Shown here: in pieces, positions 646-11,071 of the stretch | How the letters are laid out: each line of letters starts with the position of its first letter | Position numbering within the stretch: the stretch's first letter is position 1 | NCBI GenBank assembly: GCA_030587475.2 | Contig: JAUQYZ020000225.1 | Span: forward strand, 1-11,778 | DNA length: 11,778 bases | Direction of reading: 5' to 3' | DNA from: Candidatus Sigynarchaeum calidifontis | GTDB lineage: Archaea > Asgardarchaeota > Lokiarchaeia > Sigyniarchaeales > Sigyniarchaeaceae | Notes under the pieces: model-generated | Told to the model about the DNA's origin: nothing | What the model saw: the letters and a program-made list of their open reading frames with translations, nothing else | Database searches by the model: none | Made by a program: the position numbers and the translations under genes

Positions 646-867
646 TCAGCTTTCGCCGAGCATCTCTTGCATCAGCGCGATGGTCTCTTGTGCCTCTGCC
701 GGGTCGATGCGCTGGATGGCGCAGCCCGCGTGGATGATGACGTAATCCCCCACTTGCACCTGGCTCTTCACCAGCGAGATCGACACGACGCGCTTCAGCC
801 CGCCATAGTCCACGGTGGCGCGCTCGCCATCGAGGGCGAGGATCTTGACCGGCACGGCGATGCACAT
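646..867 (-). CDS. hypC: [NiFe]-hydrogenase maturation chaperone HypC/HybG/HupF
   Basis: Signature MCIAVP and VGDYVIIHAGCAIQRID; 73 aa. Start moved to ATG 867 so that Cys2 is N-terminal after Met removal; AGGTGG SD-like site upstream. Confidence 0.96.
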   Translation of the reverse strand: MCIAVPVKILALDGERATVDYGGLKRVVSISLVKSQVQVGDYVIIHAGCAIQRIDPAEAQETIALMQEMLGES

Positions 868-900
868 TTGTCCAGCCACCTGACACGGTACATGAAGCGG

Positions 901-913
901 GGAATTTTTAACC
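901..913. promoter_or_regulatory. Candidate shared TATA-like element between divergent hypC and HD genes
   Basis: GGAATTTTTAACC is the main AT-rich patch in the short divergent spacer. It reads TTTTTAA on + and TTAAAAA on -, about 35-40 nt from ATG 945 and ATG 867. Confidence 0.45.
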
Positions 914-914
914 T

Positions 915-1604
915 ATGGCGTTGAACAGAAAATCGACCGCGCACATGAACGCAGACATCGAAGCCCGGCTTCGCGGGATTGTCGACCGCTATTTTCCCGA
1001 CGCGCTGGCGCACGGCAGGGCACACGTGCTGCGCGTCGTGGCATCGTGCAAGGAGATAGCCACGAGCATCGAGGCCGAGAAAGGGCAGTGGATCGACCGC
1101 GACGTGCTGCTCGCGGCCGCTTACTTGCACGATACCGGCCGGCTCGGCGACATGAAGCCCCTCGCCCGCGCCGTGCCGCCCGCGAACGCGCCGCACGCGG
1201 AGCGCTCCGCCGGCTTCGCACGGGAGATATTGCAAGGCATGGACGGCTTTCCCGCGGCCAAGATACCCGCGGTCGAGCAAGCGATCCTCGCCCACAGCTT
1301 CTCGAAGGGCGAGCGGCCGGCCACGATTGAAGGGGAGATCTTGTCCGACGCTGACAAGCTCGACGCGCTCGGTGCCCAGGGCATCATCCGCACGGTCGCC
1401 TACTCGGTCGAGAATGGCCGGTCGCTCCAGGACACGCTCGACCACTTCACCGAGAAGATCTTGAAATTGAAGGATCTCCTCTACACGAATCCAGCGAAAC
1501 GGATCGCTGCAGCAAAGCACGAGATCGTCGCCTGCTTCGTCGGCGACCTGGTTCACGACATCGACGCGGTGCCCGATCGGGCCGACAGCACGAGTTCCAG
1601 GTAG
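915..1604 (+). CDS. HD-superfamily metal-dependent phosphohydrolase (YedJ-like)
   Basis: Motifs AHGRAHVLRV, AAYLHDTGR, HAERSA, AILAHS, LSDADKLDALGAQGIIR. The start may be ATG 945 rather than 915. Confidence 0.92.
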   Translation: MALNRKSTAHMNADIEARLRGIVDRYFPDALAHGRAHVLRVVASCKEIATSIEAEKGQWIDRDVLLAAAYLHDTGRLGDMKPLARAVPPANAPHAERSAGFAREILQGMDGFPAAKIPAVEQAILAHSFSKGERPATIEGEILSDADKLDALGAQGIIRTVAYSVENGRSLQDTLDHFTEKILKLKDLLYTNPAKRIAAAKHEIVACFVGDLVHDIDAVPDRADSTSSR

Positions 1605-2146
1605 GACCGCCGCTCGGACATGTCCCGCCCGATGCCGAAACCGGCCAGGTACCGGAACAGCTGCTCGCGCCGCGCGTCGAGGGTGGCCTCGTCATCCACC
1701 ACGATTTCCACTTCCATGTACGGGTCGGGGAGTCCCTCGACCCGGTCGAGCATTATGCCGATTTCGCCGTGCAAGTAATGCTTGCGAACTTTCTTGATGA
1801 CGATGACCTCCTTGAAACCGATCATCGTCAAGAGGCGCCGAACCTTCCCCGCGTCCGCCACGCCCACGTCGATCTCCTCGCGGGTCTTCGTCGTCGCGTC
1901 GACCTTCGGCCCCTTGTATGTCAGGAACGCTTCCACCTTCCCTTCCGTCACGTTCCGGGAGACTCGCAACCGCAAGGCCTCGTCTGTCCGGGCAAAAGAG
2001 CCGAGTTTCGCGGGCTTGTCGAAATAATAATCCTCGTGCACGAGATCACACTCGAAAATCGCACCTGCTTTCGTGATCCGTTCGGCCAGCTGCTCGACCG
2101 ACGGGATCTTGGCCTTGATCTCGATCTCCAGGCGTTTTCCGCTCAT
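1553..2146 (-). CDS. cyaB: CYTH-domain protein / class IV adenylate cyclase CyaB-like triphosphate tunnel metalloenzyme
   Basis: ExExK motif (EIEIKAK), DYYF, ALRLR, LTYKGPK, REEI, LDRVEGL..YMEVE, SYLEL. Start set at ATG 2146 with GGAG upstream; 197 aa. Confidence 0.93.
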   Translation of the reverse strand: MSGKRLEIEIKAKIPSVEQLAERITKAGAIFECDLVHEDYYFDKPAKLGSFARTDEALRLRVSRNVTEGKVEAFLTYKGPKVDATTKTREEIDVGVADAGKVRRLLTMIGFKEVIVIKKVRKHYLHGEIGIMLDRVEGLPDPYMEVEIVVDDEATLDARREQLFRYLAGFGIGRDMSERRSYLELVLSARSGTASMS

Positions 2147-2207
2147 GTCTCCATACCCGTGGTGGTTATGCACGGTAATGCGCTGGCTTATTGAAAGTGT
2201 TTCCTTG

Positions 2208-3275
2208 ATGCATCCTATCACTATCCAGCGAATAGCACGGGTGGATGCCCAGTTGACCGCGGAGATCGGCCGGATCATGAAGGACGAGGGGTACGCGCCC
2301 TACGTCGTCGAGCGATACTTGATACTGTTCGGCGAGCAGCGGACGCTGGACATCATGAAGGCGTTCCAGCGGGCGCCGGTACCAAGCATCAACGTCAACA
2401 CGTGCAACACGACGGTGAAAGCACTGCGCGAGCGGCTGGAAGCCAAGCACTTCCACCTGGAGCAAGTGCCGTGGTGCAGCACGGGGTTCTGGCTCTACGA
2501 CGCGCGGGACTACGAGAGGAAGCACGACCCAGGCAGCCTCGCCGATTTTGCCATGGCGCCCGGCGCCACGCACGAGTATCTCCTCGGGCTCTACTCGCTA
2601 CAAGGCGCGAGCAGCATGATCCCCCCGTTATTGCTCGATCCCAAGCCGGGCGAACAAGTGCTCGACATGGCGGCCGCGCCCGGCTCAAAATTTGTCCAGA
2701 TCGGGCAGATGATGCAGAACAAGGGTTTGCTCGTGGGCGTGGAACGTTCGCTCGATCGGATCCCCGCGTTGAAGGCGAACGTGCAGCGATGCGGCGTGAC
2801 GAATTCGGTCATCGTGTGCAACGATGCCCGTCATCTCGGGAAGCAGTTCCAGGGCTTTGACAAGGTGCTGCTCGACGCGCCATGCACGGGCGAGGGTCTC
2901 ATGGGCTCGGACCCGTCCCGGAAAAATTCCCGCAGCGTCGGCGACATCGAGACCATGATGAACATCCAGCTCCAGCTACTCGAGAAGGCCATGGGGCTCG
3001 TCAAGCCGGGCGGCCGCATCGTGTATTCCACGTGCAGCCTTGCCCCTGAAGAGGACGAGCACGTGGTTAACGAGGTGTTGAAGAAGCACAAGAACTTCAA
3101 GATCATCCCGCCACCACGTTCGATCGCAAGTCACTTCGAGCCGGGCATGGTCAAGGCATTCCAGGTCAAGTTCCGCGAGGACCTCGCGAACGCCGTGCGC
3201 GTGTTCCCGTACAACCACCCGGCGCGGCCCGAGGGGTTCTTCGCGGCGATCCTAGAAAGGCATGGAACACGATGA
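2208..3275 (+). CDS. Nop2/NOL1/RsmB-family SAM-dependent RNA cytosine-C5 methyltransferase
   Basis: GATHEYLLGLYSLQGASS, motif I VLDMAAAPGSK, motif IV LLDAPCTGEG, motif VI VYSTCSL, C-terminal EGFFAA; both catalytic Cys present. Start uncertain (ATG 2208, GTG 2241 or ATG 2277). Confidence 0.96.
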   Translation: MHPITIQRIARVDAQLTAEIGRIMKDEGYAPYVVERYLILFGEQRTLDIMKAFQRAPVPSINVNTCNTTVKALRERLEAKHFHLEQVPWCSTGFWLYDARDYERKHDPGSLADFAMAPGATHEYLLGLYSLQGASSMIPPLLLDPKPGEQVLDMAAAPGSKFVQIGQMMQNKGLLVGVERSLDRIPALKANVQRCGVTNSVIVCNDARHLGKQFQGFDKVLLDAPCTGEGLMGSDPSRKNSRSVGDIETMMNIQLQLLEKAMGLVKPGGRIVYSTCSLAPEEDEHVVNEVLKKHKNFKIIPPPRSIASHFEPGMVKAFQVKFREDLANAVRVFPYNHPARPEGFFAAILERHGTR

Positions 3276-3280
3276 GGTGA
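3274..3280 (+). promoter_or_regulatory. Shine-Dalgarno site GAGGTGA overlapping the methyltransferase stop codon
   Basis: Archaeal-type SD 8 nt upstream of ATG 3289, overlapping TGA 3273-3275. Confidence 0.7.
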
Positions 3281-3288
3281 CACGTGAC

Positions 3289-3999
3289 ATGGGCAAGAAA
3301 CCGAGCAACCGGCCCCGTAGGGCCCGCGACGACCGTGAACCGGACGATGAACGTGCTCCCGATGATTTGCAACGCGAATCAAGCCGCGAGGCGCCCGAGC
3401 GCGCGGGGAAGGCGCGGGAATCCCACTGGATCGATTTCGCCACGAAAGAACAGAAAGACATCGTTCACGCGGAGGTGAACATGTTCGGCGACGGGGACGG
3501 GGCATGGGATGCACTCGTCGTGCGGGGCGACAACAACGTGTTCCATTACCAGAAAGGCGATTTCACGAGCATCCACCTCATGCCCCGCGAGGCCAAGGAC
3601 CGATTCAAGGTGCTCATGGGCAACCCCGGCTTGAAACATTTCGGCCTGTTCCTTGGCATGCTCAAGGGGAGCCAGTTCAACTTGTCCCTCGAGGGGGCGG
3701 CGGAGCTCGTAAAGCGCGGCGCTGCAACACGGAACTGGATCAAGCTCAGCGACGATGGCGAAAAATCGTTCTTGTACGGCCAGGACATCAAGAAAGCGGC
3801 GTTACAAGAGATTTGCCCCCGTGGAATCACGCATGACCGCGGCATCTGCATCATCTTGAATGCCCGCGGCGAGTGCTTGGGTCTTGGGAAGTTGGAAGCC
3901 CGTGATCCGCGTCTCGTGAAGGTGTCCGATGACGAGATCCTCGTCAAGACCTTGATCGACCGCGGGGTTTATTTACGCGACCAGGATCGCTTCGCGTGA
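3289..3999 (+). CDS. nip7: Nip7-like large-subunit ribosome biogenesis protein (pre-PUA + PUA domain)
   Basis: FGLFLG..FNLSLEG, GEKSFLYGQDI, IILNARGECLGLG and terminal LIDRGVYLR are typical of Nip7/PUA proteins; directly downstream of a Nop2-like gene. Start set at 3289 from the SD. Confidence 0.85.
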   Translation: MGKKPSNRPRRARDDREPDDERAPDDLQRESSREAPERAGKARESHWIDFATKEQKDIVHAEVNMFGDGDGAWDALVVRGDNNVFHYQKGDFTSIHLMPREAKDRFKVLMGNPGLKHFGLFLGMLKGSQFNLSLEGAAELVKRGAATRNWIKLSDDGEKSFLYGQDIKKAALQEICPRGITHDRGICIILNARGECLGLGKLEARDPRLVKVSDDEILVKTLIDRGVYLRDQDRFA

Positions 4000-4075
4000 G
4001 GCTAACCCACGAATCACGACGAGAACTGGTGTTATTTCCCTTCTAACAAATACCTCAGCCTCCTAAAACGTCACG

Positions 4076-4117
4076 TTTTATTCCTACGATGGCTTCTACA
4101 AATCAAGTACAAGGTGA
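4076..4117 (+). promoter_or_regulatory. TATA-like box (TTTTATT, 4076-4082) and SD (AGGTGA, 4112-4117) for the FKBP gene
   Basis: AT-rich intergenic region 4000-4126; SD lies 9 nt before ATG 4127. Confidence 0.5.
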
Positions 4118-4126
4118 CAGCGCGCA

Positions 4127-5056
4127 ATGGCTGACACGATCGAAAGCGGCAACGTGGTTCGCGTTCACTTGACCGGGCGCGTGAACTCGCATGATGGCCC
4201 CGTCTTCCAGGTAACCGATGAGGCGGTCGCCAAGGCAGAAGGACTGGTCGAGGAAGGGAAACACCAGCATTACGAGCCCAAGCTCGTCATCGTTGGCAAG
4301 AAACAAGTCATCGAGGGGATTGACGAGGCGCTCGTGGGGATGAAGGTCGGCGAGGAGAAGAAAATCGAGATCCCCCCCGAGAAGGCGTTCGGAAAATCCG
4401 ATCCCAAGAAACGGCAATCGATGGCATTCCCGGAGTTCCGGAAGCGGTTTAAAAAGGTGCCCCGCGTCGGGGAGGTCGTCGAGCTCCCCCAGACCAAAGA
4501 GGACGCCCGCGTCGTGAGCACGAACCAGGGTAGAGTCATTCTTGACACGAACCACCTGCTTGCCGACCGCACCGTGTATTACACGATCAAGGTCGTGGAA
4601 AAAATGGAGGGTGAAGACGCTCTTCTCAATGCCCTCATCGAGCAGCGTATGCCCGGCATCCCTGCCAGCGAGTTGAAGATCAACAAGGCTGGCAAGACAC
4701 TCGAGCTCACGATCCCGAACCAGGTCATGTTTTACCAGCAATCCGGCTTCATGCTCTATCTTTTGGCCAACGAAATCCAGAAAGAAATCCCGCAATTCGA
4801 GAAAGTGCGGTACATCATCGACATCGAGAAGCCCAAGCTACCAGAAAAGCCTGCTGGTGCCGAGGCCGAAAAGCCCGCGGAAACCGTTACTTCCACCGCG
4901 GAACCAGCCACCGATGCAGTAAAGCCCGCGGAGGCCACTACCACCACCGAGGAACCGGCCGCCGATGAGAAAAAGGCAAAAAAGCCGGCCAAGAAGGGTT
5001 CCAAGAAGGCAACGGATGAGTCCGCATCGGACGGGGCCGGAGAGAAGAAAGAATAA
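4127..5056 (+). CDS. Archaeal long-type FKBP peptidyl-prolyl isomerase/chaperone (SlyD-like insert-in-flap domain, C-terminal domain, low-complexity tail)
   Basis: YEPKLVIVGKKQVIEGIDEALVGMKVGEEKKIEIPPEKAFG, IF-domain segment, GRVILDTNHLLA; extra C-terminal domain and a ~75-aa E/K/A/P/T tail. Confidence 0.92.
   Translation: MADTIESGNVVRVHLTGRVNSHDGPVFQVTDEAVAKAEGLVEEGKHQHYEPKLVIVGKKQVIEGIDEALVGMKVGEEKKIEIPPEKAFGKSDPKKRQSMAFPEFRKRFKKVPRVGEVVELPQTKEDARVVSTNQGRVILDTNHLLADRTVYYTIKVVEKMEGEDALLNALIEQRMPGIPASELKINKAGKTLELTIPNQVMFYQQSGFMLYLLANEIQKEIPQFEKVRYIIDIEKPKLPEKPAGAEAEKPAETVTSTAEPATDAVKPAEATTTTEEPAADEKKAKKPAKKGSKKATDESASDGAGEKKE
4870..4967 (+). repeat. Intragenic tandem duplication with 51-bp (17-aa) period in the FKBP tail
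   Basis: 4870-4916 vs 4921-4967 match at 38 of 47 bases by hand count; KPAETVTSTAEPATD / KPAEATTTTEEPAAD. Confidence 0.8.
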
Positions 5057-8284: not shown

Positions 8285-9124
8285 ATGGACGACATCTTGT
8301 TGCTCTCGCGCGACACGCTGCGGGAGGAGCGAGACGAGCTGTTGAAGCGCGGGGTGGCGGTGGCATATCGCACGTGGGCGGAAGTTACTGCCCCGCCCGT
8401 GGATCCCCCGGCGGTGGCGCGCTGGATGCTGTTCGTCCAGGACATGACCTTCCAGCTGTCATACATGGAGGAACTCGAACGCAGCGGCACGCGCGTGATC
8501 AACACCTCACGATCGGTGCAGATGTGCGACAAAGCATCGATCTATTTTCTCTGGAACCGGCACTTGAAGGAACGCATCGACATACCGCCCACGATCATGA
8601 CCGCCGACGTGAAGCGAGCGTGGGAATTCGTCACGACGCACGGCCAAGCCGTGCTCAAGCCGATCGATGGTCAAGGCGGGGAAGGGACATATATCCTCGA
8701 TGCGAGGGATGTGCACGGCTTCTCTAAACTCAATGATCACCCGGGCACGATGTTCTTGCAGGCAATGATCCCGTCCACCCACGAGATCCGCACGGTCGTT
8801 GCAGGGGAAGAAGTCATCGCTCAATACGCGCGCTACAACCCGGGCGGGCTCCACTCGCTCGGTGCGGGTGCCACCTTGCTCCCGGTCGACGATGGCAGGA
8901 TTGATCTTCCCCCCGACATCGCCCGCGATCTCGGGGAACTCGCCCTTGCCACGCGGAAATTGACCGGCCTCGATCTGCTCGCGCTCGACACCTTGATCGA
9001 TGCCAGGCAGCAGCCGTGGTTGCTGGAATGGAACCCGTTTTTCGCGTACGGACAGACGAAAGGGCTTGGGTTCAACATTGCATACCGCATCGCGTGTTTC
9101 ATCTTATCGACTCGCAGTAGGTAG
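8285..9124 (+). CDS. RimK/LysX-like ATP-grasp ligase
   Basis: RVIN..CDK, IPPT, VLKPIDGQGGEG, FLQAMI, EIRTVV, LLALD, LLEWN (ExN metal-binding motif). Confidence 0.88.
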   Translation: MDDILLLSRDTLREERDELLKRGVAVAYRTWAEVTAPPVDPPAVARWMLFVQDMTFQLSYMEELERSGTRVINTSRSVQMCDKASIYFLWNRHLKERIDIPPTIMTADVKRAWEFVTTHGQAVLKPIDGQGGEGTYILDARDVHGFSKLNDHPGTMFLQAMIPSTHEIRTVVAGEEVIAQYARYNPGGLHSLGAGATLLPVDDGRIDLPPDIARDLGELALATRKLTGLDLLALDTLIDARQQPWLLEWNPFFAYGQTKGLGFNIAYRIACFILSTRSR

Positions 9125-9192: not shown

Positions 9193-10008
9193 ATGAGCGA
9201 TAAGAGCTTGGAAGGATTCCTCAAGAAGCTGGAGGCTGAGAAGAAGGAAGCGGACAGCAAGGACGAGGACAAGTTGAGTGTCTTGCAAGGGGTAGTGGAG
9301 AAGATCCTCAACTACGTGTTGACCGCCGTTGAAACCACCGGTAACCGTTTAATGAACCTGGAATCAGGGATCAACAACATCCAAGCATACCTCACGCAAC
9401 AGCTGAATGACCTCACGGGCCGACTTCGACAACTACCCGGCTTGCAAGGCTTGAAGGATGTTCAAGTGCCGGTCCTCGATGCACCCCCCAACCCGACGAC
9501 GATGGCCAATGCGTACTTCCAAAGCCTCGCCCAGTTCATCGCGCAGAAGGCATCCGAGTTGCAAGCGATGCGATCGAACCAGGCCGAAGTGAAGGCAGCC
9601 GTGCCCGATAGCAAGATCGATTCAGGGCCCGACGAGTTTTCTGGCGGGTTAAACGAGGAGTTCCTCCAGAAGAAAAAGGAGCTAGAGGCCAGGGAAAAGT
9701 ATCTCTCGAAATTAGCAGACCAGCTCGCAGCCAAGGAGCAAGCCTTGCAAGAGCGCGAGAACACGATCGAGATCCTCGAGTCGGGCCTTCAAGACAAGCT
9801 CAAGATGTCGGCAGCCATCCAGATGGTCCAGGAAGACACGAAGGCCGGGAAAGAAGGGGAAGGAAGCGACGAGCTCGCGGAGCTCTCGAAGCTATCCGAG
9901 TCTATAATACACGGCGATTCGACAAGCGAAGAAGACGAGAATGACGAGGATGGTATCGATCCGGATGCCTTGAATGATCTCGTGGAAGAGGACAAGGACG
10001 AAGGATGA
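9193..10008 (+). CDS. Hypothetical coiled-coil protein A with acidic C-terminal tail
   Basis: 271-aa ORF with protein-like composition and heptad patterns; AT-rich promoter-like region at about 9139-9152 and AGGATGA upstream of the ATG. Confidence 0.8.
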   Translation: MSDKSLEGFLKKLEAEKKEADSKDEDKLSVLQGVVEKILNYVLTAVETTGNRLMNLESGINNIQAYLTQQLNDLTGRLRQLPGLQGLKDVQVPVLDAPPNPTTMANAYFQSLAQFIAQKASELQAMRSNQAEVKAAVPDSKIDSGPDEFSGGLNEEFLQKKKELEAREKYLSKLADQLAAKEQALQERENTIEILESGLQDKLKMSAAIQMVQEDTKAGKEGEGSDELAELSKLSESIIHGDSTSEEDENDEDGIDPDALNDLVEEDKDEG

Positions 10009-10024
10009 AAAAAGGTGCGTGAGC

Positions 10025-11071
10025 TTGGCAAAAAAAAATAGCCTTGCCGAACTGCTCGGGGGATTCAGGGCCGGGACGAGGAACGAGCGGCGCGAGGCGA
10101 CGGAACAGGGCGATGCGGGCGATGCCGTCACGCCCGAGATCCCGCGTGCCAAGAAGGCACCAGGTATCCTCGACCCCATCATGGCCCTGCTCACGCCGGA
10201 GGAGAAATTCCAGTTCTTGTCGGGGCTCATGGACTTCATAGGCGATTTCATCGTCAACATGCTCGACCAGTACACGTTCGAGCTGGGCAAGGTGGAAAGC
10301 TCGATCTCCAACTTGCAGAGCACCGTGCTCAACCAGGTGCGCACGATCCGGAACCAGGTCGACATCGCCCGCCAACAAGGTCACTTCAAGGCGTTGGAGG
10401 GGCCACCCGTGCCGCCGGGCCTTGCAGGCACGCTGCAAGGCAACATGATCGCCGCTGCCGCCGCGGCCGTCGGCTCGAGCGATGAGCCGAGGAAGAGGCG
10501 GGAGGCCACGGAGCGGGATGTCATGGACATCGCGGCGAGCATCCGCACGCTGATCACGCGGCAGAAGATGGCAAAGCCCGCGGCAACCCAGCCTGCCACC
10601 GATGAGGCTGCCATCAAGGCCGAGACCGCCCAGGAGACCACGGGAAAGGCATCGCTCGACACGAAGCTCCAGCAGTTCCAGAAATCCGCGGACGAGCAGA
10701 AGCAGCGCATCGACCGCATCGCGAGCACGGCGAAACCAACGACGGCACGGGCGACTCAAGCTCTCACGCAGCAGCCCGAAAAAACCCCGGTACAAGCGAA
10801 GCAAGAGAAACCAGCGAAGCCGGCGAAATCCGCATCGCGCAAGAAGCAAGGAACACCAGCGGCGGCAGCCGCCGCAAAACCGGGGCCCCGACCTCAAGCC
10901 CAACCCCAGGCGAAACCGGCGATGGCAGGCACCCCCAAGCCTGCCGTTGCCCCCAAGCTCGACAAGGAAAAGGACATGCTACCCAAGGGCTTCCAGCAAG
11001 AACTAATGAAAAACATCAAGGACTTGATGAAAGAAAAGGGGAAGGATATGAAGAAACCCGACGCGAAATGA
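10025..11071 (+). CDS. Hypothetical coiled-coil protein B with Pro/Ala/Lys-rich linker and C-terminal amphipathic helix; probable paralog of protein A
   Basis: Starts 16 nt after the protein A stop. SD AGGTG at 10013-10017 favours TTG 10025 (GTG 10019 is an alternative). Shares a gapless helical block with protein A. Confidence 0.8.
   Translation: MAKKNSLAELLGGFRAGTRNERREATEQGDAGDAVTPEIPRAKKAPGILDPIMALLTPEEKFQFLSGLMDFIGDFIVNMLDQYTFELGKVESSISNLQSTVLNQVRTIRNQVDIARQQGHFKALEGPPVPPGLAGTLQGNMIAAAAAAVGSSDEPRKRREATERDVMDIAASIRTLITRQKMAKPAATQPATDEAAIKAETAQETTGKASLDTKLQQFQKSADEQKQRIDRIASTAKPTTARATQALTQQPEKTPVQAKQEKPAKPAKSASRKKQGTPAAAAAAKPGPRPQAQPQAKPAMAGTPKPAVAPKLDKEKDMLPKGFQQELMKNIKDLMKEKGKDMKKPDAK

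Follow-up and report, generated by a model that had tools for sequence, protein, structure and literature searches.

A linked pair of paralogous coiled-coil proteins in Candidatus Sigynarchaeum, probable offshoots of an Asgard-wide adaptor module

The window analysed here, a contig of 11,778 nucleotides (C267) from a 4.99 Mb assembly that has 54% G+C and is 89% complete, carries two adjacent, co-oriented genes, A and B, in neither of which a Pfam domain was found at significance. Full-length profiles of both, compared with PDB sequences and Pfam, returned generic coiled coils only. This raises the question of what these proteins are, and whether they act together. An earlier note, made from the sequence alone, had read them as paralogues that hetero-oligomerise through a shared helix and that may be prokaryotic relatives of the WAVE/WASH coiled-coil core. 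We believe the best explanation as a whole, and one somewhat more probable than its opposite, is that A and B form a hetero-oligomeric adaptor or scaffold pair drawn from an Asgard-wide module.

The two genes and their parts are as follows.

8285 to 9124, plus strand: RimK-like ATP-grasp gene; wherever the locus was seen, it immediately precedes A (context only).
9193 to 10008, plus strand: gene A, 271 residues from an ATG start at 9193; acidic (pI 4.4, net charge −27), all-helical, with flexible linkers.
9208 to 9252, plus strand: short N-terminal amphipathic helix of A (residues 6–20), matching the helix that opens the pan-Asgard module described below.
9265 to 9441, plus strand: long assembly helix of A (residues 25–80) and a conserved Leu-Pro-Gly cap; the 47-residue block in common with B is 9265 to 9405.
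9493 to 9549, plus strand: end-helix homologue of A (residues 101–119), with its E-L-K triad eroded in the window copy.
9649 to 9846, plus strand: A-specific second coiled coil (residues 153–218), strongly conserved across the A family.
9865 to 10005, plus strand: conserved amphipathic helix of A (residues 225–240) and acidic tail (residues 219–271, net charge −19).
10009 to 10024, plus strand: A–B spacer of 16 nucleotides, purine-rich, with a putative stretch resembling a ribosome-binding site; 25–35 nucleotides at six other loci.
10025 to 11071, plus strand: gene B, about 348 residues (350 from a GTG at 10019); basic (pI 9.8), four conserved helices amid disordered linkers.
10196 to 10375, plus strand: long assembly helix of B (residues 60–119, counted from 10019); the block in common with A is 10199 to 10339, and residues 67–104 are the Abi2-like stretch.
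10511 to 10570, plus strand: B-specific helix (residues 165–184), nearly invariant among orthologues.
10655 to 10729, plus strand: B-specific helix (residues 213–237), conserved among orthologues.
10730 to 10954, plus strand: disordered basic arm of B, rich in Pro, Ala and Lys (longest Pro run 2, no polyproline).
10982 to 11044, plus strand: C-terminal helix of B (residues 322–342), its best match to the family end helix, degenerate.

The start of B most likely lies at the TTG codon at 10025, because its orthologues start there. A search with A matched 19 proteins of 39–100% identity. Among named organisms, Ca. Sigynarchaeum springense has the closest relative of A, a hypothetical protein at 86% identity, and Loki-type Asgard archaea are the source of every named relative of A and B. 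The net charges of the two proteins are opposite (acidic versus basic). Monomer models were of low confidence overall (pTM 0.26 for A and 0.18 for B). A Foldseek search with the A model gave no match at E up to 0.001, single long helices yielding no fold signal, and the ESM Atlas returned a single match (0.75) to the A block, which is a lead only.

The kinship of the two proteins can be read from their assembly helices. The gapless block described in the earlier note, with 12 identities, was reproduced exactly; its 47 columns start at residue 25 of A (9265) and at 10199 in B, include 16 that are hydrophobic on both sides, and score 58 on BLOSUM62. None of 500 shuffles of full-length B reached that score (maximum 47), and a shuffle of the block that preserved its hydrophobic pattern gave P = 0.0016. 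Among 52,782 six-frame ORFs of the host, a search set that includes its other coiled coils, the two blocks are each other's best non-self windows (runners-up 33 and 32). Plain BLASTP of A against B was not significant (E 0.85); comparison of their family profiles gave E 4.6e-4 over 55 columns in the identical register. The block was picked post hoc, so an independent route through a third family weighs more.

That route was opened by searching the A block over 400 Asgard genomes, which uncovered a family of proteins of 125–200 residues in which a short aromatic helix is followed by a long one, then a proline-rich arm and, at the C-terminus, a helix bearing an invariant E-L-K triad (the ‘end helix’). 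The N-domain profile of this family finds matches in 201 of the 400 genomes, and its end helix occurs in 97 of 100 Asgard genomes with a completeness of 95% or more, almost invariably as a single copy; the host's own free-standing member lies on another contig (C206). The module also forms the C-terminal tails of Arf/Rag-like GTPases, one of them in the host. A parent profile built from 35 diverse members, with A and B left out, ranked the free-standing copy first among the host ORFs, followed by A (E 7e-5), the tail of the Arf-like GTPase (2.6e-3) and B (0.087); the fifth ORF came in at 3.8, and no reversed decoy scored better than 3.5. In profile–profile comparison the parent family matched A at 95.6% (E 1.2e-8) and B at 70% (E 4e-5), both single-pair values, in one register. 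In turn, the A and B profiles each recovered free-standing members from other Asgard genomes (two genomes in the case of B), and family members from across the Asgard phylum align with A and B over 50 gapless columns with a core rich in Ile and Val.

Since the parent profile matches both proteins in one register, their paralogy, as the earlier note had proposed, is well supported, in agreement with the reciprocal best windows and the direct profile comparison. In a tree of the 50 columns A and B group together at 87/85 (unstarred) on long branches, which is compatible with tandem duplication and no proof of it. Judged from sequence, A and B are derivatives of a near-universal Asgard adaptor module, and are probably lineage-restricted paralogues that arose by tandem duplication. 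The membership signal resides in the short helix and the long assembly helix. The two proteins differ from the pan-Asgard forms, with which they have the short and long helices, apparently the end helix, and their register in common, in being about twice as long, in their extra conserved helices, in forming a fixed pair confined to one lineage, and in having no polyproline arm (longest Pro run 2, versus 5 in the host's free-standing member).

In A the module appears to be present as a whole. The full-length family profile matched the A family at 95.3% (E 2.2e-8) over 102 columns, corresponding to residues 5–116, and a segment cut from A matched the family end helix at 69.8% (E 4e-5). The end-helix profile favours residues 101–119, residues 150–164 being conserved in close orthologues only; the E-L-K triad is intact in three distant orthologues and lost in the window copy. 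On this alignment the entire module would sit within residues 5–119 of A, a short linker replacing the polyproline arm. The counterpart in B is degenerate. Of 13 B orthologues, 11 have their best end-helix site in the C-terminal helix (P in shuffles at most 0.03); this helix scores 16–18 on a profile that gives true members 27–52, and its comparison with the family end helix in hhalign was not significant. An end-helix HMM run over the host ORFs found neither A nor B. The middle helix of B (residues 165–184) was considered as a homologue of the end helix and rejected.

The gene order is uniform. At all seven loci with flanking DNA, B follows A at a distance of 16–35 nucleotides, down to 34% identity in A. 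The surroundings, which extend from HypC to a convergent GDPD gene downstream of B (where the contig reaches that far), are housekeeping and syntenic, with no cytoskeletal gene; within the window, positions 646 to 5056 hold HypC, HD, CYTH, RsmF-like methyltransferase, Nip7-like and FKBP genes that are syntenic across the A–B loci. Gains and losses in this block (MFS, flavodoxin, PIN/VapB) never fall between A and B. Orthologues of the pair were found in two of the 400 GTDB Asgard genomes, which belong to the same genus as the host, and were absent from two other genomes of its family (63% and 78% complete). A scan for promoters and terminators, of a design not made for archaea, performed at chance level.

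The proposed role in actin regulation presupposed a host with actin homologues. Consistent with the earlier note's expectation, the host is an Asgard archaeon whose genome has an actin gene (E 1.8e-130) and two others of the actin family, along with two gelsolin-domain proteins and a profilin match that is weak and below the curated cut-off, so that a lack of actin cannot be held against that role. The profilin match is a protein of about 220 residues with a C-terminal extension (L121:799-1467, minus strand), convergent with a roadblock-like gene. On the same contig as the free-standing family gene (C206), and about 19 kb from it, lies a multi-gelsolin protein of 748 residues (L099:343-2586, plus strand) with long charged coiled-coil inserts. 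Fusions of the module to gelsolins were sought in the host and five other genomes, and none was found at the thresholds used.

The oligomeric state of the assembly helix is probably trimeric, because Ile and Val are abundant in its core and the PDB neighbours of the family profiles are mostly trimeric coiled coils; its hydrophobic face is wider in the first half. This supports the trimer-type helix in the earlier note's proposal that A and B hetero-oligomerise through the common helix. For the mixed complex itself, structure prediction of a 2:1 assembly (A2B) gave a score of 0.59 against 0.01 for the best control, with at least 88% contact agreement between runs and a partner pLDDT of at least 74. 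In calibration, 58 of 80 solved pairs reached the mark, as did 2 of 110 mismatched ones, but only seven of these solved pairs, and both mismatches, scored 0.60 or less; the A2B score thus falls where the tool is wrong more often than right unless a complex is likely beforehand, and it was set against controls that were neither coiled coils nor homotrimers. The prediction lends weak support to the view that A and B probably assemble with each other.

The specific eukaryotic pairings fared less well. The earlier note had aligned A with BRK1 and with CCDC53, and B with the WAVE homology domain. Among PDB sequences, with E values up to 10 allowed, a profile of the A block retrieved neither BRICK1 nor any WAVE chain, no WAVE1 chain appeared among the PDB matches of B, and neither the CCDC53 nor the WASH_WAHD profile picked A or B; the WHD/WAHD domain has no match in either protein. 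The same is true of HSBP1, whose profile selected neither protein; as a candidate for the closest eukaryotic relative it was rejected, since across 43 genomes it picks other coiled coils. At the family locus, the CCDC53 and HSBP1 profiles matched in about one of the 43 genomes each. HSBP1 was matched weakly by four of 35 family members (best E 3e-4) and WASH_WAHD by one or two, all far under the curated cut-offs. Overall, the Asgard host, the paralogy and the trimer-type helix of the WAVE/WASH reading stood, while membership in the BRK1, CCDC53 or WAVE helix families found no significant match.

One unexpected lead came from B. Residues 61–98 of human Abi2, a component of the WAVE complex, were the top match of the B profile among 177,635 PDB sequences (gapless, E 0.19). 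In the reverse direction this 38-residue piece ranked B first and A second of the 52,782 host ORFs, a result that is partly circular because the B profile had itself picked Abi2; the piece also outscored every non-family host ORF on A-only and parent-only profiles. Other sub-threshold matches were BRICK1 against the Loki parent-family profile (E 0.13, about rank 43, in the PDB search) and WASH_WAHD against the host's free-standing member (E 0.067). The Abi2 match disappeared once four distant orthologues joined the B profile, and pooled or diverse profiles against the PDB were led by viral and designed trimers, with no WAVE-complex chain in the top 60. A trimer geometry in common can generate likeness of the Abi2 or BRICK1 type.

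In layout, the pair nonetheless resembles the trimer of ABI, WAVE and BRK1/HSPC300 (PDB 3P8C, chains D–F): both have a trimer-type helix of about 45 residues near the N-terminus followed by flexible arms, both consist of paralogous chains that, in the Asgard case, may form a mixed trimer, and both B and A (to Abi2 61–98) and the parent family (to BRICK1) show the gapless matches just described, all below threshold. They differ in that A and B have no significant homology to these chains, no Abi_HHR region or C-terminal SH3 domain, no polyproline, and no WH2-central-acidic output region (WH2 gave no Pfam match in either protein, and A has an acidic tail only), while A carries a second coiled coil and B two extra helices. 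With the WASH–CCDC53–FAM21 trimer and its assembly factor HSBP1 (PF11945, PF10152 and PF06825) the pair has in common a coiled-coil assembly helix of probable trimer type, but neither protein is selected by any of the three profiles, nor is the family locus selected reproducibly. The platform subunit CYFIP and strumpellin were not matched in five Asgard genomes, in a scan that had no positive control.

These comparisons bear on the boldest reading of the locus, in which the Asgard helix is ancestral to the helices of BRK1, Abi and WAVE (and of CCDC53, FAM21 and WASH), and A and B are a living step from homotrimer to mixed trimer that controls actin. It has attractions: the target class had been named beforehand, Abi2 leads the matches of B, the free forms of BRK1 and CCDC53 (and HSBP1) are homotrimers from which BRK1 and CCDC53 pass into heterotrimers, ABI, WAVE and BRK1 forming a heterotrimeric coil (PMC8047104), and the host has actin and actin-related genes. 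Every WAVE/WASH match is, however, below significance, the leading one does not survive a broader B profile, and the partly circular reverse scan, the rarity of CCDC53 and HSBP1 matches, the missing platform subunits (in the uncontrolled scan) and the absence of output motifs all weigh against it. We consider this reading unlikely, and descent of the Asgard and WAVE/WASH helices from one ancestor is, on the same sequence comparisons, a minority prospect of similar weight. What the comparison does suggest is a resemblance in working to the WAVE/WASH small-subunit trimer, with membership unproven.

The end helix might point to a different kinship. In the parent family it resembles the F-actin-binding motif of Ena/VASP, and A and B might accordingly be multivalent filament binders that bundle or tether Lokiactin, any eukaryotic relationship being confined to that helix. 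Its near-universal presence in Asgard archaea and the long basic arm of B (net charge +12) would suit such a role. An EVH2 region (polyproline, F-actin-binding helix and oligomerising coil) likewise combines a coil with a flexible arm that bears a basic amphipathic helix. The order of these elements is reversed, though, the Asgard coil is trimer-type where that of Ena/VASP is tetramer-type, and there is no EVH1 domain; the family end helix has no Pfam match and no meaningful PDB match, and the copies in A and B are degenerate and unaccompanied by polyproline for profilin loading. The text of a Lokiactin co-immunoprecipitation study reports enrichment of gelsolins, a profilin and an Arf GTPase and does not name the Asgard-wide family (10.1101/2025.11.30.690169). 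We regard direct filament binding of this kind as rather improbable. It is also unlikely, if a little less so, that A and B are two independent homo-oligomers, or a scaffold outside the actin system with a GTPase/roadblock or nucleic acid partner, and are neighbours simply by inheritance. The HypC–GDPD block is syntenic as a whole, so adjacency of A and B need not imply interaction; B is basic and disordered, and the host's free-standing member adjoins a roadblock-like gene. Against this, insertions and losses elsewhere in the block have never separated the two genes, and the mixed A2B complex passes, if weakly.

For the adaptor or scaffold pair that we favour, the following mechanism may be envisaged. 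A and B would be co-expressed and would zip together through their common helix into a mixed trimer of 2:1 composition, or would draw its third chain from the GTPase tail or from the free-standing copy in the host. The assembly would consist of a long parallel trimer-type coiled coil, flexible arms and docking end helices, the latter being offered on the arms to a conserved protein partner, and its role would be that of a non-enzymatic scaffold or tether. In view of the fusions to Arf/Rag-like GTPases, the most plausible partner would be a component of the actin/small-GTPase machinery for membrane shaping; actin itself is a possible choice, though a less than probable one. The GTPase fusions, together with the presumed likeness to the VASP motif, point towards actin or membrane remodelling.

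The literature on actin regulation in Asgard archaea names mainly profilins and gelsolins (10.1101/2025.11.30.690169), and we found none on the Asgard-wide family or on an Asgard relative of the WAVE/WASH core, in a search outside which most subscription papers lay. What appears to be new is that A and B form a long, linked and lineage-restricted pair, that the whole module can be mapped onto A, and that Abi2 emerges as a lead. A near-universal adaptor with duplicated, diverged and linked copies offers a small and cheap system in which to test mixed trimers and contact with actin. Were the link to Abi and BRK1 true, the core of the WAVE and WASH complexes would predate eukaryotes; were it false, A and B would be a lineage-specific elaboration of an Asgard family.

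The wider family shows a number of further arrangements. Arf/Rag-like GTPases with the module as their tail occur at L006/L112 (G128:C11) and L119:2202-3632 (minus strand); in one genome (G128) three such genes, two of them confirmed as GTPases, are apparently in tandem. In G128 the module also follows a HEAT-like repeat protein as a fusion (L106:1321-2550, minus strand). In a variant from another genome (G144; L091:1934-2464, minus strand) a Cys-rich, zinc-ribbon-like tail replaces the end helix. A separate family (L107:1108-1683, minus strand; L109:1405-2091, plus strand; L068:1492-2244, plus strand) has a similar N-terminal helix and a C-terminal helical domain but no end helix. Tandem duplicates of the free-standing gene also occur in another order of the same class (L051:85-973, minus strand; L117:938-1761, plus strand), as an independent adjacent pair. 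Three genomes from the family of the host have, as the next gene downstream of the free-standing one, a gene that is roadblock-like by eye and has no Pfam match (for example L013:903-1355, minus strand, and L080:2053-2508, plus strand). Finally, at 41 of about 70 loci the free-standing gene has, no more than about 1.5 kb away, a gene for an all-helical protein of 210 residues that looks BAR-like by eye and matches nothing in Pfam or among PDB sequences (for example L013:146-775, minus strand; L005:1849-2484, minus strand; L096:2567-3244, plus strand).
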